Source: Clostridia bacterium | GTDB taxonomy: Bacteria; Bacillota; Clostridia; Oscillospirales; CAG-272 | DNA: 64,000 nt | NCBI GenBank assembly: GCA_017461945.1 | Contig: JAFTSB010000057.1 | Coordinates: 3,594 to 67,593 of the forward strand | Reading direction: 5' to 3' | Shown here: piece after piece, positions 5,810-60,762 of the stretch | Position numbering within the stretch: the stretch's first letter is position 1 | Layout of the letters: each line of letters begins with the position of its first letter | Position numbers and translations under genes: made by a program | Notes under the pieces: model-generated | Database searches by the model: none | What the model was told of the DNA's origin: nothing | What the model saw: the letters and a program-made list of their open reading frames with translations, nothing else

Positions 5810-6608
5810 ACCCTTGATCGAGGTCAGAGAGCTGACCAAAAGCTTTGGTGAGCTGCAGGTGCTGCGATCGGTTTCGGTGGATATCATGCCCGGAGAAAAG
5901 GTTGTCATCATTGGCGCCTCCGGCTCCGGAAAAAGCACGCTGCTGCGTTGCCTGAACTGTTTGGAGGATCCCACCGGTGGCTCGATTATGTTCGAGGACG
6001 AGGATCTGGCCGACCCCAAGGTGGATATCAATATCCATCGCCAAAAAATGGGTATGGTGTTTCAACAATTCAATCTGTTCAACAATAAAACCGTGCTTCA
6101 GAATATCACGTTGGCTCCTGTGACCATCCGCAAAAAGAAGCTGGCGCAGGCCAAACGCCGGGCGCTGTTTGGAAAGTGCGAAAAGCCTATCGAAACCAAA
6201 GAGCAGATTTTGAAAGAGGAAAACGAAAAGGCGATGCAGCTCCTTGCACGCATTGGCCTGGAGGATAAGGCTAACGTGTATCCTTCTACACTCTCGGGTG
6301 GACAAAAGCAGCGCATTGCCATTGTGCGCGCCCTTGCGATGAATCCCAAGGTGATGCTGTTTGACGAGCCTACCTCCGCCCTTGACCCCGAAATGGTAGG
6401 CGAGGTGCTGGATCTGATGAAGCAGCTGGCCGATGAGGGCATGACGATGGCTATCGTGACCCATGAGATGGGCTTTGCCCGTGAGGTGGCGGATCGCATC
6501 CTCTTTATGGATGACGGTGTCATCGCTGAGCAGGGTAGTCCCGAGGAGATCTTTGGCAATCCCCAAAGCGAGCGCTTGAAGGCGTTTCTTGCCAAGGTGC
6601 TTTCATAA
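5799..6608 (+). CDS. amino-acid ABC transporter ATP-binding protein
   Basis: Walker [11 protein letters not shown]-loop MVFQQFNLF, signature [15 protein letters not shown], Walker [13 protein letters not shown]. Start chosen at MENKPLIEV, overlapping the permease stop. Confidence 0.92.
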
Positions 6609-6614
6609 AACAGT

Positions 6615-6645
6615 AAAACGGTGCGCTGAAAAGCGCACCGTTTTG
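6615..6645 (+). terminator. intrinsic terminator
   Basis: CGGTGCGC (6619-6626) / GCGCACCG (6633-6640) followed by TTTT. Confidence 0.75.
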
Positions 6646-6705
6646 TCATTTTTATGCCCTTTTGCATAGGCTGACAGAAAGGATTTTTGCTTTTGTGAGG
6701 TGCGT

Positions 6706-8058
6706 ATGGGAAAATATTTTGGGACCGATGGATTTCGGGGCGAGGTAGGACGACAGCTCACCACCGAGCACGCCTTTGCGATCGGTCGTTTTATGGGACA
6801 TCATTTGCAGGGGGACCACCGTCCGCGCGTACTGATCGGAAAGGATACGCGCCGCTCCTCCTATACGCTGGAATACGGCTTAATAGCAGGGCTGACAGCC
6901 TCGGGGGCAGAAGCGCACCTGGTACACGTGCTTCCAACGCCGGGGGTGTCGTATCTGGTACAGACACAGGGCTTTGATTGTGGCATTATGATTTCGGCCA
7001 GTCACAACCGATTTTCGGATAACGGTATTAAAATTTTTGCGCAAAACGGCGCCAAACTGGACGATGATACCACCGCATTGTTAGAGACCTTTCTGGATGG
7101 GGAACGGACGTTGCCGTCGGCGCAAGGAACGGATATCGGCACGGCGGTGGATGCAGGACCGATGGGCGAGCGGTATATGACCCATCTGCGGCAAAGCGTA
7201 CAGGGCGATCTGAAAGGTCTGCGTGTTGGGCTGGACTGTGCCAATGGCAGTGCTTCGCGCCTGGGCGAGATGCTCTTTCGGAATTTGGGTGCAACGGTCT
7301 TTCCCCTTCATTGCACCCCCGACGGCGTTAATATCAACCGCTCCTGTGGCTCCACGCATCCCGAAAGCCTTCAACGGTTGGTGGTGGAAAAGGGACTTGA
7401 TGTGGGGTTTGCGCTGGATGGCGATGCCGATCGTTGTATTGCGGTAGATCACGCCGGGCGCGTGGTGGACGGTGACGGCATTTTGTATGTCATGGGGCAA
7501 TATCTCAAGGCCGCCGGTCGCTTGAAGCACAATACCGTCATTACAACTGTGATGTCAAATATGGGGTTATATCAAGCCTTGGATGCCCTTGACATAACGT
7601 ATGAAAGCACACCCGTTGGCGACCGTTTTGTACACGAGCGAATGGTGCAGACCGATTGCGTTTTGGGGGGAGAACAATCGGGGCATATCATTTTCGGCGA
7701 ATATGCGGATACGGGTGACGGCCTGTTGACCGCGTTGCTGATTGCCGAGCGAATTTGCCGAAGCGGAAAAAGCTTGCAGCAGCTGACGGCAGGCTTTCAC
7801 TCCTACCCGCAACTGACCAAGACCTTTTATGTGTCAAATAGGGAGATGGTCATGGCCGATCCTGCTGTTTTACAAGTGGTGCAGGAGGCGGCCGTCGCGT
7901 TAGCGGGAAAGGGAAGGGTGCTGGCGCGCACCAGCGGTACCGAGCCGGCTGTGCGCTTGACCGTAGAAGCACCGGATGGCGCATTTTGTCGGAAAATTGT
8001 GGAACGTATGGCCGAAATCCTGCAACAAAGGAGGTTTTTGAGCGATGCTGATCACTGA
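6706..8058 (+). CDS. glmM: phosphoglucosamine mutase
   Basis: MGKYFGTDGFRGEVG N-terminus, phosphoserine loop SASHNRFSDNGIK, metal loop LDGDADR, GEQSGH. Confidence 0.92.
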   Translation: MGKYFGTDGFRGEVGRQLTTEHAFAIGRFMGHHLQGDHRPRVLIGKDTRRSSYTLEYGLIAGLTASGAEAHLVHVLPTPGVSYLVQTQGFDCGIMISASHNRFSDNGIKIFAQNGAKLDDDTTALLETFLDGERTLPSAQGTDIGTAVDAGPMGERYMTHLRQSVQGDLKGLRVGLDCANGSASRLGEMLFRNLGATVFPLHCTPDGVNINRSCGSTHPESLQRLVVEKGLDVGFALDGDADRCIAVDHAGRVVDGDGILYVMGQYLKAAGRLKHNTVITTVMSNMGLYQALDALDITYESTPVGDRFVHERMVQTDCVLGGEQSGHIIFGEYADTGDGLLTALLIAERICRSGKSLQQLTAGFHSYPQLTKTFYVSNREMVMADPAVLQVVQEAAVALAGKGRVLARTSGTEPAVRLTVEAPDGAFCRKIVERMAEILQQRRFLSDADH

Positions 8059-52962: not shown

Positions 52963-54339
52963 TTATTTAGGCATTCGGTCTTTTCTTGACTTCATGCCAT
53001 AGTAGGAGTTTCCTTGCCACGAATGGTCATAAAAGACGATTTCCGGTATCATCACGCCGGCCTCAAAAAAAGGATTGTGATAATAATTCTTGGCGGGAAT
53101 GGAATAAATTTTGGCTAATATACCATTTTCGATAAAGAACAATTGGTTTTTCAATACTTGTAAGGGCGAACAAAAGCAGTGCAATTCTTCAAAGCCCTCG
53201 TCTATATAGATTTTGGCACAGACATAGCACTCATCTGCCGAATTATACACGCCGTCGTTCCCTTTGTATTTTATGTTCATGTCATTGGCGTAAATGTCCG
53301 TAGCCGGGATATTTTGCGCCAAAAGATAGTTTTTCCCGGCTTCACTTAACGGGAGGGCATCAAGCTGGCCGTTTTCGGCGTGCGTGCTGCCCGGAATGTA
53401 AAACTTTACTTGTTTGCCGTGTTCCTTTAATTCGTGGTAGAGTGCTATTCCTGCGTTTAAGCGGCTACAAAATTCCTCGTTGGGTGTGTCGCCGTTGACA
53501 AGAGGATGTTGTGCAGATATTTGAATCAGAACACGTTTGGGATCAGCGACTTGCGTTTGTAGGGCGTGTTTGTATTTTTCGGCCCAATACACCTCTGCAG
53601 TATTTTCCCATGATGGGCTAATGTTCCAAACCGTGTTAAAATGTTCTGTTAACATATAAACAAAATTATCGTTTTCTTGCTGCAGCGCGGCGGTTTGACA
53701 GTCCATTCGGAACAAAATATGCTCCTTGGCTTTTGCAGGGGGGAGCGTAATATTTAGCCATACCGAGGTTTTAGCCTTGGGCGAATTTTCGTCAAAAGAA
53801 GCAATGACCAAAGGGAGCCGATATTCACTGGAAAAGTAGCGGACCTGCAGCTTGTTTTTCGATCCGCGGTTCAGATTTTCTAAAATTTCGTGTACCCGAT
53901 CCACTTCCAGATCTATGTTATCCTCAAAGGAGCGATAAGAAAATTCATGCTCCATGTTTTTGATATCCTTCAAAAATGGATTGTTTTTGCGAGAAAGAAG
54001 GATCTCGATCTTCGCACCTCTTGCCAATGCCTTTTTGATCATTTCCTGCTTTTTGATATCACTAAAAAAGCCTATGCCCGTTACAAAAATCAATTTGATC
54101 GTGTGAGCGTGAGAAAAAATGTAGCGGTATTCCTTTTCTGTAATATTTTTGTTGGATATGGAAGAAAGAAATCCATATTTTGAAAGCTCATTTGCAAATG
54201 TAATTTTGCTGATATATTTTTTTGTGAAAATAACAGCAATAAAGCCCGTTATGGCGGCCACGATCAGAGACTTTAGAATGTCGCTCCAAAAAGCGATGTG
54301 ATCAATGCTTGTCCAAAGCGCAAGATAATGATTAGGCAT
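52963..54339 (-). CDS. membrane-anchored fusion protein: N-terminal TM helix, unknown middle domain, C-terminal DUF218/YdcF-like domain
   Basis: AAGGAG SD 8 nt before ATG 54339. TM segment LKSLIVAAITGFIAVIF. C-terminal VLIQISAQHPLVNGDTPNEEFCSRLNAGIALYHE...LSEAGKNYLLAQNIP fits the DUF218 pattern. Visibly AT-richer than the core. Confidence 0.65.
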   Translation of the reverse strand: MPNHYLALWTSIDHIAFWSDILKSLIVAAITGFIAVIFTKKYISKITFANELSKYGFLSSISNKNITEKEYRYIFSHAHTIKLIFVTGIGFFSDIKKQEMIKKALARGAKIEILLSRKNNPFLKDIKNMEHEFSYRSFEDNIDLEVDRVHEILENLNRGSKNKLQVRYFSSEYRLPLVIASFDENSPKAKTSVWLNITLPPAKAKEHILFRMDCQTAALQQENDNFVYMLTEHFNTVWNISPSWENTAEVYWAEKYKHALQTQVADPKRVLIQISAQHPLVNGDTPNEEFCSRLNAGIALYHELKEHGKQVKFYIPGSTHAENGQLDALPLSEAGKNYLLAQNIPATDIYANDMNIKYKGNDGVYNSADECYVCAKIYIDEGFEELHCFCSPLQVLKNQLFFIENGILAKIYSIPAKNYYHNPFFEAGVMIPEIVFYDHSWQGNSYYGMKSRKDRMPK

Positions 54340-54433
54340 GGCAAGAACTCCTTGTTCTTTCGATGAGATGAAGCCGTGTGCGACAGGATTGGTGTTACAG
54401 TTACGTAAGACCACTCCATTGGTGTGTAGTTAT

Positions 54434-54462
54434 AGTGTAACATATATCGAACAGTTTGTCAA
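54434..54462 (-). promoter_or_regulatory. sigma-70-like promoter of the DUF218-fusion gene
   Basis: On the minus strand: TTGACA (54462-54457), 17-nt spacer, TACACT (54439-54434). Confidence 0.6.
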
Positions 54463-54561
54463 TTTCGATTACAGGAAAAGAGCGGCGACCGTTTGTGTAC
54501 TGCTGGCTGCGACTCATATGCTACTTTGCACCGTCGCACATTTGTTGGATAACCCAGAACG

Positions 54562-54598
54562 CAAAAAGCTCCCATCGCTTTGTGCGATGGGAGCTTTT
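54562..54598 (-). terminator. intrinsic terminator directly after the tRNA-Arg 3' fragment
   Basis: On the minus strand: AGCTCCCATCGC-ACAAA-GCGATGGGAGCT followed by TTTTT, starting 1 nt after the CCA. Confidence 0.85.
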
Positions 54599-54642
54599 TG
54601 GCACCCGCAGCGGGAATCGAACCCACAACTAACCCTTAGGAG
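54599..54642 (-). pseudogene. 3' half of a split tRNA-Arg(CCT) gene (anticodon loop to CCA)
   Basis: The minus strand reads CTCCTAAGGGTTAGTTGTGGGTTCGATTCCCGCTGCGGGTGCCA. This is the T arm GTGGG-TTCGATT-CCCGC and acceptor 3' strand TGCGGGT. There is no 5' half adjacent. Confidence 0.85.
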
Positions 54643-54778
54643 TTTTTATTGGTGTTCATTTCTATCTGTGTGTGGGTGTTTTTCTTGCAAAACAAGCGTA
54701 AAATCGACCGAAACGATAGATCTTACGCTTGGTAGGTTGTGTGTTTGTTGGTGGTTTTTGTAGTGCTTTGTAATGTGC

Positions 54779-54803
54779 GGGTGTACAATGGGTGGACAAA
54801 AAG
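54779..54803 (+). repeat. left copy of the 25-nt motif GGGTGTACAA-N-GGGTG-N-ACAAAA
   Basis: GGGTGTACAATGGGTGGACAAAAAG, compared with GGGTGTACAAAGGGTGTACAAAACAG at 56981-57006. Same orientation. Confidence 0.8.
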
Positions 54804-54813
54804 TAAAGTGCGT

Positions 54814-55575
54814 TTATTTGGTTTCGTTGCCATAAATCCGATCAATTTTATCGTTTATTTTTGTTTTTGCCAATAATTCACTCTGCATATTATTCAGAAC
54901 AGACATTTTTTCGTCAATTATTAGAGATTGAAAATGAGCGTGGATGTTATCATACAAAATGTATTCATCATAAGAGCCTTCTTCATAATTGGTGATAACA
55001 GCGTTAATTCGGTTGTTCGCTGTGTAGTCATATTCAGCCAAAGCTCTAATCATAGAAATCATTAAAGCTTTAATGCCGTTTATAGTATTTTCTTTTGGCT
55101 TCCATATTGTATTGCAATAGTCATCTATTATTGAGTACATTGAATCAAAATCAAAACTGGCTATTCGGTTAATTCTGTTATATAAGTCTATTACGAGTGG
55201 TTTATTATATGCGTGGTTGTTCAGCTTTAATTTTTCAAGTTTCTCGAAATCATCTTTATCCAAATTAGTAAAATTTATGTTGTAATTAACCTTGGTTCCC
55301 TTATGAGAATACCAATTAGCAACAGATCTTATTAAGTTTACGCAAGTTATGAATTTTGTATTGAAATCTCGTTCGTATTCGAATTTTATGGAATAAAAAT
55401 TTATAAAGGCTAACGTACCGCTTAGAAAAGCTCCGCCCACAAGTGATATGAATATGTTCAAAAACACTTCAAAAACAGGATGGCAATTTTTTAATGGAGT
55501 AAAGACACATATACACAAAATACTTAGTAAAAATGAGACTAGCGAAATCCAAAAAACTAATTTATTTATTTTCAT
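54814..55575 (-). CDS. hypothetical membrane protein (253 aa, two N-terminal TM helices plus a soluble domain)
   Basis: AGGTGA SD before ATG 55575, with its own TTGATT...TATAAT promoter-like signal upstream. TM segments LVFWISLVSFLLSILCICVF and FLNIFISLVGGAFLSGTLAFINF. Confidence 0.7.
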   Translation of the reverse strand: MKINKLVFWISLVSFLLSILCICVFTPLKNCHPVFEVFLNIFISLVGGAFLSGTLAFINFYSIKFEYERDFNTKFITCVNLIRSVANWYSHKGTKVNYNINFTNLDKDDFEKLEKLKLNNHAYNKPLVIDLYNRINRIASFDFDSMYSIIDDYCNTIWKPKENTINGIKALMISMIRALAEYDYTANNRINAVITNYEEGSYDEYILYDNIHAHFQSLIIDEKMSVLNNMQSELLAKTKINDKIDRIYGNETK

Positions 55576-55684
55576 CAATGTTCACCTATGATTTTTTATT
55601 ATATTATAGCATAAAGCATAATAAAATCAATGTATTTTACAAGCATACAAACCGTTGAAAATACTCTTTTGGGGAACAGGATAA

Positions 55685-55730
55685 GAGGAGGGGCTAAATT
55701 GCCATCACTGCGTGAATTTAGCCCCTCCTC
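55685..55730. repeat. perfect 16-bp inverted repeat with a 14-nt spacer
   Basis: GAGGAGGGGCTAAATT (55685-55700) and AATTTAGCCCCTCCTC (55715-55730), GC-rich arms in AT-rich intergenic DNA. Confidence 0.85.
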
Positions 55731-55760
55731 GATTGCTCAAAAGCGGGATACCCGCCTTTA

Positions 55761-55922
55761 TTATTTGGTTGAAAGTATTGCTGAAAGTGCAGCCAATATT
55801 TCCAGAGGATGCTTGGCTTTGTCTATGGATTGCTTCAATAGTTCCTTATCTAAATCGGTTAGCGGATGATTTGAATGATCAACCAGTAATTTCCACATAG
55901 TTTTAACTTGTTGTTCTGTCAT
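55761..55922 (-). CDS. small hypothetical protein (53 aa), below the ORF-track size cut-off
   Basis: ATG lies 1 nt after the upstream gene's TGA (TGATATG). MTEQQVKTMWKLLVDHSNHPLTDLDKELLKQSIDKAKHPLEILAALSAILSTK, followed by a short GCGGG/CCCGC hairpin plus TTTT. Confidence 0.5.
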   Translation of the reverse strand: MTEQQVKTMWKLLVDHSNHPLTDLDKELLKQSIDKAKHPLEILAALSAILSTK

Positions 55923-55923
55923 A

Positions 55924-56829
55924 TCAAAGTCCTAAAATTTGTTTTTTCTTTTGCTCATAATCTTCTTGTGTAATCAATCCGTCATCAAGCATTTCTTTTA
56001 ATTCTTGGAGTTTCTCTTTTGAGGAAGTGGGAGTTTTTGAAAAAGCTCCCGCAAAGGGCGTTACTGCATCTTCAAGTTTTCTTGCATTTAACACAAATTC
56101 AAGTTCTGAACATACAGCATGCAAACTTTTTCTCGCTTCTTTGTAAATGTTAGTAGACTTGTTAATGTTTCCGCCGTTTATAAATGCTATATTAAGCTGA
56201 GTGTTTGCAGAATCGTTTATGCGAATAATTAATTCTAATTGAGAACACATTTCGTTTATTGACCTGCCGACATTACTGCCTACAATCATTCCACCAAGTC
56301 CGAAAAACGCTCCGCCTATCAATGCACTACCTGCCGTTCCTTCTACTTCGCGCCTGCCATTTTCATATACTTCGTAATTGATGATGTCAGAAAAGTTATA
56401 GGTTTTTGAAAAAGTGGATTTTACTTGATAGATAAACTTTTTGTTTTTGTCGTCAATTAAAAGTTTTTTGGTGGTTCGTCCCTTGCCAAAAATCATTATA
56501 ATTTTAGACAATACAAAATTGCTATCAGGGATCCCTGCTTGAGGGGTTAATGCTTCGATGCCTTCGGGCAAACAGGCAATATGCTTGCACATCATATAGT
56601 CGATAATCCAACCGTAGTCGCTTCTAGTTTTATATACATACATAAACCAAATGCAAACAAACAAAGTGGAAATGAAAAAAAGCAAACTTAAAGTGAGCAA
56701 AGCCCTTTCAAACAAGAGAGACAGCACTACACATACAAGCATCATAATACATGCGACAACACCCAAATATGTGGAAAACAACCAAAGTGCCTTCCTCTTT
56801 TTAATAATTTGAATTGGATCGATATTCAT
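55924..56829 (-). CDS. membrane protein with a C-terminal SHOCT domain (301 aa)
   Basis: AGGAGAG SD before ATG 56829; the track ORF extends upstream into the tRNA. Two TM helices, a glycine zipper GSALIGGAFFGLGGMIVGS, and the SHOCT-like tail KLQELKEMLDDGLITQEDYEQKKKQILGL. Confidence 0.75.
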   Translation of the reverse strand: MNIDPIQIIKKRKALWLFSTYLGVVACIMMLVCVVLSLLFERALLTLSLLFFISTLFVCIWFMYVYKTRSDYGWIIDYMMCKHIACLPEGIEALTPQAGIPDSNFVLSKIIMIFGKGRTTKKLLIDDKNKKFIYQVKSTFSKTYNFSDIINYEVYENGRREVEGTAGSALIGGAFFGLGGMIVGSNVGRSINEMCSQLELIIRINDSANTQLNIAFINGGNINKSTNIYKEARKSLHAVCSELEFVLNARKLEDAVTPFAGAFSKTPTSSKEKLQELKEMLDDGLITQEDYEQKKKQILGL

Positions 56830-56879
56830 ATGGTACTCTCCTAATTTGAATTGACGGAATGATCCTTCCAAAATCAATA

Positions 56880-56954
56880 TGGCACCCCCAACGGGAATCG
56901 AACCCATAACTAACCCTTAGGAGGGGTTTATTATATCCATTTAACTATGGAGGC
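56880..56954 (-). tRNA. tRNA-Arg(CCT), complete, carried inside the insertion
   Basis: The minus strand folds by hand into a 75-nt cloverleaf. Acceptor GCCTCCA/TGGGGGT, D arm GTTA..TAAT, anticodon arm AACCC-CTCCTAA-GGGTT, T arm ATGGG-TTCGATT-CCCGT, then G-CCA. Confidence 0.85.
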
Positions 56955-56980
56955 GTGCTATTTAATTGTGATTTTCGCTT

Positions 56981-57006
56981 GGGTGTACAAAGGGTGTACA
57001 AAACAG
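56981..57006 (+). repeat. right copy (tandem GGGTGTACAAA x2) of the motif also found at 54779-54803
   Basis: GGGTGTACAAAGGGTGTACAAAACAG, about 90 nt inside the right junction. Confidence 0.8.
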
Positions 57007-57095
57007 CGATTAGCAGGTTTAGGACACAAAATCCTTGTAGTGTTTGAGTCTATCCTCATAAGGTTTCATTCTATCCTCGCGGATAGACCTACCGA

Positions 57096-57133
57096 TTAGG
57101 AGGGGCTTGTTATATCCATTTAACTATGCAGGC
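57096..57133 (-). pseudogene. 5' half of the split tRNA-Arg(CCT) gene (acceptor 5' strand to anticodon loop)
   Basis: The minus strand reads GCCTGCATAGTTAAATGGATATAACAAGCCCCTCCTAA and then diverges (TCGGTAGG...). GCCTGCA pairs with TGCGGGT of the fragment at 54599-54642. Confidence 0.85.
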
Positions 57134-57405
57134 GTATTCAATTTTTGACACCGTATCGGCGTTTTTGTCGCATTTTGCTGCCAAATAGGTGCTGTTCGGC
57201 AGCAGCAACAGTGGAGCATCGCCCCGACACAACGGCTTGTGCATTACAGAGTATACCACATTTCGGACAAAAAGGCAAGAGCTTAAAAAAGCTTTTGGCA
57301 AGATTTTATGTGCGGTCAAGTGTGTTCCGTGCTCGCCAGGGAAAGTAAAAGTATGAGTTTCTTGAAATTTGATCGCAAAAAGTTCAAAAATCTTGGAAAA
57401 AGAGC

Positions 57406-57435
57406 TTGACATTTGCTTCTTGATTATGTTATAAT
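57406..57435 (+). promoter_or_regulatory. sigma-70-like promoter of rplU-prp-rpmA
   Basis: TTGACA (57406-57411), 18-nt spacer, TGtTATAAT (57427-57435). Confidence 0.7.
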
Positions 57436-57523
57436 AAATGGCCGCTTGAAAAAGGCTATGTGAAGTGTATCCTCGCGATACCGCCTGAGATCAGCGAGTC
57501 TATAAGAAAGAGAGGTGCTTTTC
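57436..57523 (+). promoter_or_regulatory. 5' leader of rplU; possible L21-leader-type autoregulatory RNA
   Basis: An ~88-nt untranslated leader between the promoter and GTG 57524. It sits in the position where Firmicutes carry the L21 leader. The structure was not verified. Confidence 0.3.
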
Positions 57524-57835
57524 GTGTACGCAATTATCGAAACCGGCGGAAAGCAGTACAAGGTCAACGAAGGCGACGTTATCTTCGTTGAAAAGCTCGG
57601 CGTTGCTGAGGGTGAGACCGTAGAGTTCACCAATGTAAAGGCTCTGTCCAAGGACGGCGCTCTGGTTGTTGGTACTCCCGTTGTTGAAGGCGCAAAGGTT
57701 ACCGCTACCGTTGTAAAAGAGGGTAAGGGTAAGAAGGTCGTTGTCTTCAAGTACAAGTCCAAGAAGAACGAGAAGAAGAAGATGGGCCACAGACAGCCCT
57801 ACACGAAGGTTCAGATCAACGCTATCGTTGGTTGA
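57524..57835 (+). CDS. rplU: 50S ribosomal protein L21
   Basis: (V)[27 protein letters not shown] start after GAGAGG. Confidence 0.95.
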
Positions 57836-57837
57836 TC

Positions 57838-58215
57838 ATGACGACCATCACATTTTTCAGAAGCGACGGTATCTTTTACGGGTTTGAGGAAAAGGGCCAC
57901 GTTGGCTATGGCGAGTGGGGCAGCGATCCCTTCTGTGCAATGCTTTCCTCCCTGACCATGTACATCGTTGACGCCATTGAGGAGGTCTATCATGGCGAGG
58001 TCACTTACGATATCAACGACGGTGACACGGTGATTACCATTCGCTCCAAATCCGCTCTCCCTGCCTATGAGGCTGATGAGCGCGTACGCTTTGCCGTTTC
58101 GGGCTTGTTCCTTACGTATTATACGATGCTTGAGGATATGCTGCTCCACGGTGATATGTACGAGTTCACGGGGGACGGTGGCCTCGTCGTAAAGGTCGAG
58201 GACAAAGAATTTTGA
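57838..58215 (+). CDS. prp: ribosomal-processing cysteine protease Prp
   Basis: The His/Cys dyad context GHVGYGEWGSDPFCAMLSS, located between rplU and rpmA. Confidence 0.85.
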   Translation: MTTITFFRSDGIFYGFEEKGHVGYGEWGSDPFCAMLSSLTMYIVDAIEEVYHGEVTYDINDGDTVITIRSKSALPAYEADERVRFAVSGLFLTYYTMLEDMLLHGDMYEFTGDGGLVVKVEDKEF

Positions 58216-58281
58216 CCAAAACCGCCATTGGCGGTATCCGCACACGCACGTGTGTAATTTGATAAGGAGGATTTTCGAACC

Positions 58282-58560
58282 ATGTTGAGAATCAGCTTGC
58301 AGTTCTTCGCCCACAAGAAGGGCGTTGGTTCTACCAAGAACGGCCGCGATAGCGAGTCCAAGCGTCTTGGTGTAAAGGCAGCAGACGGCCAGACCGTAAC
58401 CGCCGGCAGCATTATTGTTCGCCAGAGAGGCACTGCTATTCATCCCGGCAACAACGTTGGCATCGGCAAGGACGACACCCTGTTTGCTCTCATCGAGGGT
58501 AAGGTGAAGTTCGAGCAGAAGAGCCGCGACAAAAAGCAGGTTAGCGTTTACGCCGACTAA
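58282..58560 (+). CDS. rpmA: 50S ribosomal protein L27 with a Prp-cleaved N-terminal extension
   Basis: [32 protein letters not shown]. Confidence 0.95.
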
Positions 58561-58777: not shown

Positions 58778-58869
58778 GGAGAGATGGCTGAGCTGGTCTA
58801 AGGCGCACGACTGGAAATCGTGTTAGGGCTAATACCCCTACAAGAGTTCGAATCTCTTTCTCTCCGCCA
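58778..58869 (+). tRNA. tRNA-Ser(GGA)
   Basis: 92 nt. Acceptor GGAGAGA/TCTCTCC, anticodon arm CACGA-CTGGAAA-TCGTG, long variable arm, T arm AAGAG-TTCGAAT-CTCTT, then G-CCA. Confidence 0.9.
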
Positions 58870-58873
58870 CGAC

Positions 58874-58902
58874 AAAAGGACGTCCGAAAGGGCGTCCTTT
58901 TT
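58874..58902. terminator. bidirectional terminator between tRNA-Ser and the integrase gene
   Basis: GGACGTCC-GAAA-GGGCGTCC flanked by A4 and T5. Confidence 0.8.
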
Positions 58903-58906
58903 GCAT

Positions 58907-59764
58907 TTAAAACACCTCCAGGCAGCGCTTTTGCACGCTGACGTCCGGGTGCAGATACGTATCGGCGGTGATCGCGATATCAGAGTGGCCGAGCACGTCG
59001 GAAATGATTTTGAGATCCACGCCCTTTTTCAACATCAACGTAGCGTAGCTGTGCCGGAGATCGTGAAAGCGTATGTTAGGGAAATCGAAATTCTCAAGCA
59101 AGATCTTAAATCGGTTCTCCATCTGATTAGGCGTGAGCTTGCAAGCGTAGGATCCGTTATAGGGAGTACAGCATAGCATATCAAAATGCTCCGGTCGCAG
59201 AAGGATGTACCGATCAGAGTCCTCGGTCTTGCAAGGAGTGACCACCTCGCGACCGGACTCCCAGGATCGAGACCGCTGCACGTGCAGCGTCATATCACAC
59301 GGATCCAGGTCGCGCTCTGGGATGATGCCAAGGCACTCACCGCGGCGCAGGCCGTAGCACAGCGCCATGGTCACCGGGATTTCCAGGGAAGTTCCCTGAA
59401 CACAATCAAGCATACGGCGCATCTCGCTTTCCGGCAACACTTGATATTTATACCGGTTGATCCGGGGGAGATCAAAGCGGCCGTAAGGATTGAAATCCAT
59501 ATAACCGCGCCGGATCGCGTAATTGATCATCTTGCGCAACGTGGCGTGCACGTAGACGATCGATCGGTTAGAAAGGCCACGGCCTTTCAGCAGCTCGGTG
59601 AGGAAATCAAGATCAGATACGGTCAGACTGTCGGCCGGAAAGTCACCGAACGCAGGCAGCACGTGCCGGTGCAGGTTCACCCGGTACCCGCGCACGGTGG
59701 AGGGGCGCAACCGGCGCTCACAGTAGTTTTTGAGGAATTCCTCGGCAAGGGTGTTAATGGTCAT
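58907..59764 (-). CDS. tyrosine site-specific recombinase/integrase
   Basis: SAM-like N-domain (NTLAEEFLKNYCERRLRPSTVRGYRVNL). Catalytic contexts LRRGECLGI, HDLRHSYATLML and GHSDIAITADTYLH. Confidence 0.9.
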   Translation of the reverse strand: MTINTLAEEFLKNYCERRLRPSTVRGYRVNLHRHVLPAFGDFPADSLTVSDLDFLTELLKGRGLSNRSIVYVHATLRKMINYAIRRGYMDFNPYGRFDLPRINRYKYQVLPESEMRRMLDCVQGTSLEIPVTMALCYGLRRGECLGIIPERDLDPCDMTLHVQRSRSWESGREVVTPCKTEDSDRYILLRPEHFDMLCCTPYNGSYACKLTPNQMENRFKILLENFDFPNIRFHDLRHSYATLMLKKGVDLKIISDVLGHSDIAITADTYLHPDVSVQKRCLEVF

Positions 59765-60762
59765 TTCATTTTCTCCTTTTCTTCATCGGTCATTTGTCTG
59801 ACACGGGTCATACGGTAGCCAAAACCTACCATCCACTCATACGTAACGACGACGTACTCAACGTCACGACGCAACTGCTCGTTATCGGTATATACAAGAT
59901 CACCATCAGTCACGTCATCCAGCTTGAGCTTGCGCGCAATTTCCTTAAAAACTCCGGTAAAAGAGCACAAGCGCCGACCGGCAAGCGCGGTAGACAACAG
60001 ATCTACAGCACGATCAATCTGCTGATCAGTTCCACGCAGATAATCAGCATCTTTCAACGTATACTTAGCCACCTCAAGGACGGCGCCCTTCAAACTGACC
60101 TCACCGTCATCCATTTCACGAGCTCGCACCTTGTGAATCTCTACCGAAGGATCATAATCCAAACGGCAGCACTCACGCCAAAGCTGCATAAGCTCATCGT
60201 GGTTTATGTAATCCTTACCGTGAAAGTAAGATTCTCTAACGGCAATAATCAAATGCAAATGGGGATGCCACTCAATGCTCCGAAAATACTCCGGGTGGCG
60301 CGTAATCTCAACGGCTTTGAAAACGCCTTTGAATGCTCGATGCACTTTGGCGCGCTGCATAAAACGATTAAAAGCACTTTGGATATCATCTAAGGTACGA
60401 ATCAAATCTGATCCGGCACAGTTCCGAACGGTCAGAGTGCAAAAAACAAAGCGATACCCTTGTGCAGACAACACGTCCATGATCTGCGAGATCTGGCCGT
60501 AAATCTTACGTGTTCGTCTCCACGTACACATGCGACAAAGGCGATCTTTACAAAAATTAGCAAATGATAGCCGAGGAGGGGAACCATCTGTAAAAAAATG
60601 CCACTCGGTATACGTACCACACAGCTCCACAAGTTTGGCACGATCGTGCATACCAAGCCGCTGATAAGAAAAGATCAAGGGCTGATTATCAAGCTTTCGA
60701 TCCACAAACTTGGTGCCAAGCTCACCGCTCTCCAGCTCGTGAGCGGTATCATCAAAATTCAA
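59761..60762 (-). CDS. rolling-circle replication initiator, Rep_1 (pC194/pUB110) family
   Basis: HUH motif WHPHLHLIIAV, active-site Tyr context LEVAKYTLKD, and Cys-rich FANFCKDRLCRMCTWRR. The stop overlaps the integrase ATG (ATGA). Confidence 0.85.
   Translation of the reverse strand: MNFDDTAHELESGELGTKFVDRKLDNQPLIFSYQRLGMHDRAKLVELCGTYTEWHFFTDGSPPRLSFANFCKDRLCRMCTWRRTRKIYGQISQIMDVLSAQGYRFVFCTLTVRNCAGSDLIRTLDDIQSAFNRFMQRAKVHRAFKGVFKAVEITRHPEYFRSIEWHPHLHLIIAVRESYFHGKDYINHDELMQLWRECCRLDYDPSVEIHKVRAREMDDGEVSLKGAVLEVAKYTLKDADYLRGTDQQIDRAVDLLSTALAGRRLCSFTGVFKEIARKLKLDDVTDGDLVYTDNEQLRRDVEYVVVTYEWMVGFGYRMTRVRQMTDEEKEKMK

Follow-up and report, generated by a model that had tools for sequence, protein, structure and literature searches.

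A 64,000-nucleotide stretch of the genome of a Clostridia bacterium (assembly GCA_017461945.1, contig JAFTSB010000057.1, positions 3,594 to 67,593; hereafter the window) contains a 2,453-bp insert (57095..54643, minus strand) within the anticodon loop of a host tRNA-Arg(CCT) gene. This islet carries three genes on the minus strand, referred to as gene A (301 amino acids; 55924..56829), gene B (53 amino acids; 55761..55922), and gene C (253 amino acids; 54814..55575). Comparison with related loci (numbered with the prefix L) showed that these genes belong to two predicted, independent expression units, namely tRNA-A-B and a hairpin/promoter block plus C, and do not form one three-gene machine; they are the cargo of a tRNA-targeting insertion, a mobile islet lacking an integrase. 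A defence role (anti-phage, exclusion, or abortive infection) for at least one of both units is the reading that is tentatively favoured here. The genomic context leans in this direction, as judged from the prophage slots occupied by relatives of A, the presence of relatives of C in restriction-modification (RM) operons, and the Fic, DUF2971, and PIN neighbours of A. A first-pass annotation had interpreted the three genes as a single membrane-protein module of unknown family, carried by a tRNA-targeting element and possibly involved in phage exclusion or abortive infection. All the features that it had listed were retrieved at the stated coordinates, namely the three open reading frames (ORFs), the TGA-T-ATG junction between A and B, the hairpin and 16-bp inverted repeat, and a promoter of its own for C. 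Its mobile cargo was borne out by the low G+C content and by in silico excision, which rebuilds tRNA-Arg(CCT), and the context does lean to defence. The three-gene module did not hold, as B and C were absent from all 56 genome loci with relatives of A, the complete trio occurred only in the lineage of the window and in L013, the position of C was otherwise taken by genes for a PIN, a 381-amino-acid, or a 209-amino-acid protein, and C was also found without A. Neither is A devoid of a family, as described below.

The islet has a G+C content of 31-38% (500-bp windows over 55000-56999), versus roughly 46-58% in most flanking windows. At its left junction, the 5' half displaced from the host tRNA-Arg(CCT) (57096..57133, minus strand; repeat family D1) ends in the seven-nucleotide anticodon-loop core CTCCTAA, and at its right junction the same core precedes the displaced 3' half (54599..54642, minus strand; repeat D2), the two copies of the core being located at 57102-57096 and 54642-54636. 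Joining the outer halves at CTCCTAA in silico yielded a canonical tRNA-Arg(CCT) of 75 nucleotides (ARAGORN). Of the features of a tyrosine-integrase type insertion at a tRNA anticodon loop, a core duplicated at both junctions and a target that is restored upon excision are present, and an encoded integrase is absent. Neither junction repairs the host tRNA; instead, the islet contains a complete tRNA-Arg(CCT) of its own (56880..56954, minus strand; ARAGORN; Rfam tRNA, 58 bits), which was the only Rfam family retrieved from the region 54300-57500. The acceptor stem of this inner tRNA contains the pair C5:G68, a compensatory change compared with G5:C68 in the split host gene. The simplest reading is that the 2,453-bp insert split the host tRNA and supplied a full replacement copy. 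A hybrid of host and element sequences, as is the ordinary case for tRNA-targeting elements, was considered for the inner tRNA and rejected, since its acceptor stem is self-consistent and the outer halves pair with each other. The host tRNA gene also retains its native terminator, a hairpin with a perfect 17-bp stem (54562..54600, minus strand; inverted repeat I6).

Close to both islet ends, TTGTACACCC-type repeats were found, in tandem at the left end (56981..57003, minus strand; repeat D8) and as a second, 91% identical copy at the right end (54779..54801, minus strand), and these repeat pairs look like integrase arm sites. No integrase or recombinase gene was present in the islet, A, B, and C being the sole coding genes between the junctions, and the nearest integrase gene (58907-59764) was assigned to a separate element at a tRNA-Ser gene. 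The use of the site itself could be traced in two related loci, L074 and L075, which are identical downstream of CTCCTAA (compared region 6560-7010 in each). Upstream of it, L075 continues with the 5' half of the tRNA and L074 with genes of an integrative and conjugative element (ICE; ArdA, PcfJ, and PcfK), the ICE junction being exactly at the CTCCTAA of tRNA-Arg(CCT). The same chromosome is thus represented with and without the ICE, which shows that integration actively takes place at this core in these gut Clostridia. Moreover, a sister islet in another species (L070) consists of tRNA-Arg(CCT), A, B, and a PIN gene, followed by the core, the 3' half of the tRNA, and the terminator. The layout of tRNA, A, B, a slot gene, and the right attachment site (attR), together with a conserved promoter block, thus recurs in different species with differing slot genes. 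Duplicated tRNA core flanks without a recombinase are likewise found in trans-mobilized islets of the cis-mobilizable element (CIME) type, mobilization being putative in the present case; the islet differs from these in that the host tRNA is unrepaired at both junctions and a complete tRNA-Arg(CCT) is carried along. In another locus with an A homologue (L012), the 55 nucleotides 5' of tRNA-Arg(CCT) (2063-2117) are duplicated with 78% identity at 2336-2390, past the tRNA and its terminator. This duplicate directly precedes a conserved hairpin block and the A homologue, pointing to a differing rearrangement history at the same hotspot.

Gene A encodes a protein with a transmembrane (TM) hairpin, a PH-like domain that is interrupted by a glycine-zipper loop, and a SHOCT tail, preceded by the ribosome-binding site AGGAG. 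Hydropathy analysis, AlphaFold2 modelling, and a Pfam search agreed with the two TM segments, the beta-rich middle region with its glycine zipper, and the SHOCT tail recognized by the first-pass annotation. Indeed, two segments are TM-grade (Kyte-Doolittle means over 19 residues of 2.98 and 2.41), and the model (mean per-residue confidence, pLDDT, of 77) consists of helices 5-40 and 42-68, a seven-stranded beta domain (109-223), a helix (227-256), and a two-helix tail. The beta domain is interrupted by a disordered, glycine-rich loop of low confidence (167-190), which holds GSALIGGAFFGLGGMIVGS and which is below TM-grade hydrophobicity, too weakly hydrophobic for spanning the bilayer. The stretch of residues 164-189 (window 56263-56340), GSALIGGAFFGLGGMIVGS, gave weak profile matches (E about 0.1) to the prion protein, within its hydrophobic, glycine-rich segment, a resemblance that is compositional only and no evidence of homology.

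No family beyond SHOCT had been named for the three proteins at first, which still applies to C but not to A. SHOCT (PF09851) covers residues 272-299 of A (35.9 bits versus a cut-off of 27, E=5.6e-9). In addition, precomputed annotations assign PF27000 (PH_gly_zipper) to the identical protein in four contigs, and PF27000 together with SHOCT to 120 out of 120 listed homologues; the Pfam scan performed here, with a model set that does not include PF27000, gave SHOCT only. Furthermore, residues 114-301 match positions 77-271 of the 271-position profile phrog_888 (E=2.5e-30). Structure prediction followed by fold comparison was carried out for A and C; for A, the top Foldseek matches in the PDB were PH, PTB, and FERM domains (best E=1.6e-3), and for C no significant match was obtained. 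Together, PF27000 and SHOCT, PHROG 888, and the PH-like folds place A in a family that bears a name but is functionally blank. These families match A across its whole soluble part and are named after their architecture alone, no function being attached; the hypervariable N-terminal TM hairpin falls outside the models, and partner gene B is specific to one sub-clade, unlike the wider PF27000/PHROG 888 family.

The N-terminus of A carries KKRK, and lysine and arginine residues are found in the segment after the second TM helix, which would place the PH domain, the glycine-zipper loop, and the SHOCT tail in the cytoplasm, against the inner leaflet. Therefore, A is probably anchored in the inner membrane by a TM hairpin of N-in topology. 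SHOCT-like domains are predicted to tether proteins to the inner leaflet of the membrane, with a proposed interface with phage shock protein (PSP) envelope-stress systems (PMC11237479), and bacterial PH domains assemble into oligomeric rings associated with membranes (PMC3581485). The predicted placement of A fits both the published SHOCT-like tethering and the PH oligomerization.

Relatives of A occur in metagenome-assembled genomes of Christensenellaceae and other Clostridia from the gut. A tRNA gene is located within 1.5 kb in 13 of the 48 distinct A-family loci, which is tRNA-Arg(CCT) in four further distinct contexts (L012, L070, L073, and L075) and a tRNA for Leu, Ser, Asn, Met, or Thr elsewhere. 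Prophage copies are located between the integrase and an ImmA-type protease/repressor in L083, L084, and Latilactobacillus phage P3. This is the same position as that of the lactococcal Sie2009 and the P22/lambda SieB, small membrane proteins encoded in the lysogeny module between integrase and repressor, although the topology of Sie2009, a soluble domain after a single N-terminal hydrophobic segment, is unlike that of A. Other copies are morons within late or structural regions, such as gp21 of Clostridioides difficile phage CDMH1, between Bro-N and the tape-measure gene, and the copy in L086, between a sigma factor and a terminase. Among 50,697 phage and 72,556 plasmid records, the family was represented only by C. 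difficile phage and phage-plasmid, Latilactobacillus phage, and Oenococcus phage sequences; a scan of viral contigs with a single A sequence gave no match, an alignment-based scan being needed.

Several neighbours of A homologues are known or candidate defence genes. These include a Fic gene corresponding to PADLOC PDC-S04 (L012, E=5e-99), with an 82% identical copy in L073, a DUF2971 gene corresponding to PDC-S31 that starts 2 nucleotides past the stop codon of A (L100, E=3e-28), a PIN gene (L070), and a gene for an AbiTi-like protein (L017, weak match). In L014, the neighbour is a DUF3800 gene. DUF2971 represents the Aristaios family of abortive-infection proteins (PMC11381338).

Gene B, which is translationally coupled to A through the TGA-T-ATG junction, encodes a soluble protein with two HPL-containing repeats; the hydropathy analysis applied to A and C revealed no hydrophobic segment in it. 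Its family is narrow, with 19 clusters at 67% identity or more among 5.8 billion clusters. Every B homologue with a readable context (L013, L070-72, and L078-81) starts 1 nucleotide past the stop codon of a PF27000 gene, and the identity of B is still 75-87% in comparisons in which that of the PH domain of A falls to 48% and the TM region of A cannot be aligned, these two parts of A diverging much faster than B. Most A homologues at 40-60% identity lack B, yet B always follows A at 1 nucleotide, indicating that A-B is a real pair in one sub-clade only; A-B is thus a conserved unit, and B is found in a single sub-clade of A. As no terminator was found between the islet tRNA and A, both genes are probably co-transcribed with this tRNA. 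For A, B, and C, the ratio of nonsynonymous to synonymous substitution rates (dN/dS; Nei-Gojobori method, versus the nearest diverged relatives) was 0.15, 0.08-0.25, and 0.23, respectively. This purifying selection indicates that A, B, and C are all functional coding genes, including the gene for the 53-amino-acid B.

The unit of tRNA, A, and B ends in a terminator-like hairpin, GCGGGTATCCCGC (55743..55755, minus strand), that is conserved in L078, L079, and L012. It is followed by a perfect 16-bp inverted repeat (I10; 55685..55730, minus strand; arms 55685-55700 and 55715-55730) with a conserved 14-nucleotide loop (AGTGAYGGC), in which six stem pairs change on both sides among five sequences. 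A gapped search with the inner 11 bp of the arms and the loop (55690-55725) found this motif to be unique in the window, where no chance matches are expected. Further downstream, a promoter-like site for C (TTGATT-16-TATAAT with an upstream TG; 55603..55630, minus strand) aligns with its equivalents in L013, L078, and L079. Altogether, a block of about 170 nucleotides between B and the slot gene, composed of the terminator hairpin, the inverted repeat and its loop, TTATCCTGTTCCC, and the promoter, is conserved in the window, L078, and L079; L013 retains the inverted repeat and the promoter, without the terminator hairpin. The block is also found upstream of the A homologue in L012. The double-hairpin element (window 55665-55765; L078:1260-1365; L079:1253-1358; L012:2412-2520; L013:1255-1335) belongs to no Rfam family, and a scan of viral contigs with the inverted-repeat motif gave no matches.

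The gene behind this control region varies. It is C in the window and in L013, a PIN gene in L070, an unrelated gene for a 381-amino-acid protein in L078, and an unrelated gene for a 209-amino-acid protein in L079 and L081. Since differing genes are found behind the same control region, C represents an exchangeable cassette and not an obligate partner of A-B. Conserved flanks around a slot whose content varies among genomes have likewise been described for the defence hotspots of P2 and P4 (10.1101/2021.01.21.427644).

Gene C encodes a protein in which two N-terminal TM helices and a long stalk helix are combined with a cytoplasmic helical bundle that contains a conserved DDY motif. Hydropathy analysis confirmed both TM segments, the motif NIFISLVGGAFLS of the second one being invariant among close relatives, and the AlphaFold2 model (pLDDT 84.5; predicted template modelling score 0.71) is all-helical, with a first TM helix, a second TM/stalk helix of 59 residues, and a helical bundle. 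As the first-pass annotation had noted, the soluble domain matches no named family. Indeed, C matched no Pfam, PADLOC, PHROG, or NCBIfam family (nothing above noise in the case of NCBIfam), and a Pfam search with C and 34 C-family members returned sub-threshold noise only, such as CyanoTRADDas_TM (E=0.03) and holin. A hairpin, AAGCGTAARATC...GATTTTACGCTT (54693..54731, minus strand; inverted repeat I15), is located 3' of C and likewise follows the C homologue in L012.

Members of the C family are rare and were absent from the phage and plasmid records mentioned above (50,697 and 72,556, respectively); eight relatives were retrieved by a word-indexed search and 41 by an exhaustive profile search (50%-identity representatives among 1.84 billion). 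Three relatives, in an IMG/VR provirus contig (L082:1000-8071) and two metagenome contigs (L094:4195-10878 and L095:3994-8615), are encoded in type III RM operons, between mod, the methylase gene, and res, the helicase-endonuclease gene. These proteins share about 30% identity with C and about 31-33% among themselves, and their start and stop codons overlap with the neighbouring genes. A SieB-domain gene that shares the operon is found upstream in L082 and L094, and a DUF4391 gene also occurs in L082; none of these extra genes (C-family, SieB-domain, and DUF4391) of the three operons was recognized by PADLOC 2.0. Elsewhere, a 47% identical relative is located between a DUF4238 gene and the gene for a type IIG enzyme (PADLOC E=0), and a 48% identical relative between an A homologue and Fic/PDC-S04 (E=5e-99) at another tRNA-Arg(CCT). 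C family members without A were found in L008, L082, L094, and L095. C is an independent cassette, the family of which is repeatedly embedded in RM operons. A comparable situation is known for PrrC, an abortive-infection effector embedded in type Ic hsd loci. The likeness consists of an extra gene wedged into an RM operon, as are the C relatives between mod and res. The differences are that C is a helical protein with two TM segments and without an ATPase or nuclease domain, that the RM systems are of type III or IIG and not of type I, and that the copy of C in the window adjoins no RM gene. A DUF4238 protein is known to protect against phage T7 (10.1101/2021.01.21.427644).

Taken together, tRNA-A-B and C may provide accessory anti-phage functions, most likely acting independently. 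In such a scenario, A would be located at the inner leaflet, its PH domain, glycine-zipper loop, and SHOCT tail all facing the membrane, where it may either interfere with the entry of phage genomes or, upon a trigger, self-associate through its glycine zipper and depolarize the membrane. B might then be a stoichiometric regulator or an antidote. C could act as a membrane effector or sensor such as those found together with RM systems, forming a second line of defence, of which the window would contain a stand-alone copy.

Several results weigh against a defence role. Neither A, B, and C nor the neighbouring 458-amino-acid ORF matched any of the 5,027 PADLOC-DB 2.0 models (E of 1 or lower), so that the comparison with known defence systems envisaged by the first-pass annotation turned out negative. 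Profile comparison with hhalign gave a probability of 0.45% over 11 aligned columns for the A family versus Sie2009 (Tuc2009 orf2) and of 0.5% for C versus a SieB-domain protein, and PF14163 was matched by none of 34 C-family members. As the PADLOC, Sie2009, SieB, and PDB comparisons gave no homology to a characterized defence protein, it is the genomic context that carries the defence reading. Similarly, C had no significant fold match in the PDB or BFVD, its mechanism thus being deduced from its architecture. Moreover, most genes adjoining A homologues are unannotated ORFans and not recognized defence genes, ordinary neighbours include genes for a BD-FAE hydrolase, YfhO, and a sigma factor, and guilt by association is a weak argument in the case of single genes carried by mobile elements. 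Envelope-stress and housekeeping settings are also known for SHOCT and bacterial PH domains (PMC11237479, PMC3581485). Finally, a literature search retrieved no experimental data on members of any of the three families, nothing on PH_gly_zipper, PF27000, or phrog_888, and no link between SHOCT and phage defence.

The proteins might instead function in membrane homeostasis or envelope-stress tolerance, or have another non-phage function beneficial to the host, and be carried on mobile DNA by chance. The proposals of inner-leaflet tethering and of a PSP interface for SHOCT-like domains (PMC11237479), the membrane-associated oligomeric rings of bacterial PH domains (PMC3581485), and the BD-FAE hydrolase, YfhO, and sigma factor neighbours would all be in line with it. 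This explanation is nevertheless somewhat unlikely, given the patchy distribution tied to tRNA genes and prophages, the embedding of C in type III RM operons with overlapping codons, and the Aristaios-like, Fic/PDC-S04, and PIN neighbours; PSP, Lia, or two-component genes were not found nearby. Alternatively, A-B may be an addiction pair that stabilizes the islet, A being a membrane-damaging glycine-zipper protein and B its coupled neutralizer, in which case any phage phenotype would be secondary and C would be unrelated cargo. The small gene B, coupled at 1 nucleotide, is 75-98% identical while A diverges to 48%, the islet persists in several samples without an integrase, and glycine-zipper segments are the toxic element of the membrane-depolarizing toxins TelE and EsxX (PMC10434224, PMC12744356), which resemble A in having a GxxxG-rich hydrophobic stretch able to self-associate in membranes. 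The zipper of A differs from theirs in being inserted in the PH-like domain of a membrane-anchored, non-secreted protein, without LXG and without a T7SS (type VII secretion system) context, and it is below TM-grade hydrophobicity. In addition, most A homologues at 40-60% identity lack B, so that A cannot be generally lethal in the absence of B, and prophages stably carry A without a B-like gene. An addiction pair is therefore considered unlikely.

That the islet derives by decay from a larger integrative element, with genes that have lost any useful function, is quite improbable. The lack of both an integrase and an excisionase, the complex architecture of a split tRNA and duplicated arm-like repeats, and the full ICE at the same core site in a related genome would agree with decay; the three intact ORFs under purifying selection and the recurrence of the tRNA-A-B-slot-attR layout with its promoter block across species, with differing slot genes, argue against it. 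The possibility judged most remote is an interbacterial toxin-immunity set consisting of a glycine-zipper toxin and membrane immunity proteins. Such immunity proteins are typical for these toxins (PMC12744356), and A does contain a glycine-zipper motif, but secretion domains (LXG, Rhs, signal, or other) are lacking in A, which is anchored by a TM hairpin of its own, and no T7SS or type VI secretion system genes were found nearby.

If the favoured anti-phage role is true, a function would be attached to PF27000/PHROG 888, a family that is widespread in prophages and tRNA-adjacent islets and currently function-blank, and the rare C family would be a new RM-associated membrane protein, its position between mod and res hinting at a coupling of restriction to a membrane effector. 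The islet would represent a minimal mobile element that destroys its tRNA target and substitutes its own copy, with a promoter block before an exchangeable cargo slot. Together, these would be three testable leads in gut Clostridia and Christensenellaceae, the phage defences of which are little studied. A wider, rather doubtful extension is that PH_gly_zipper-SHOCT proteins are the shared membrane module of modular small defence operons and that C is an unrecognized third component of some type III and IIG RM systems. The interchangeable partners in such operons may comprise B with a two-TM protein, PIN, Fic, a DUF2971 ADP-ribosyltransferase-like protein, and ORFans, and their spread may proceed via integrase-less islets that split a tRNA gene and bring a complete replacement tRNA. 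The most original aspects are the RM association of C and the islet that splits and replaces a tRNA gene. All in all, the finding is a modest, concrete lead within the familiar class of membrane proteins borne by mobile elements, which leaves the textbook picture unchanged and defines small, clonable constructs for direct tests.

Two further regions of the window lie on either side of the islet. Just beyond the right junction, an ORF of 458 amino acids (52963-54339, minus strand; G+C content of about 39-44%) encodes a protein with an N-terminal hydrophobic segment and without a Pfam, PADLOC, PHROG, or NCBIfam match. It is kept beside the islet in all contigs with an exact copy and may be an older insertion. 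On the other side, a second small element (58778-60762) abuts a tRNA-Ser(GGA) gene (58778-58869, plus strand). It contains an ORF of 285 amino acids (58907-59764, minus strand) that resembles a tyrosine recombinase and an overlapping ORF of 333 amino acids (59761-60762, minus strand) that resembles a replication-initiator protein, both as judged by eye. The ribosomal operon rplU-prp-rpmA (57515-58560) is thus flanked by two tRNA-linked insertions.

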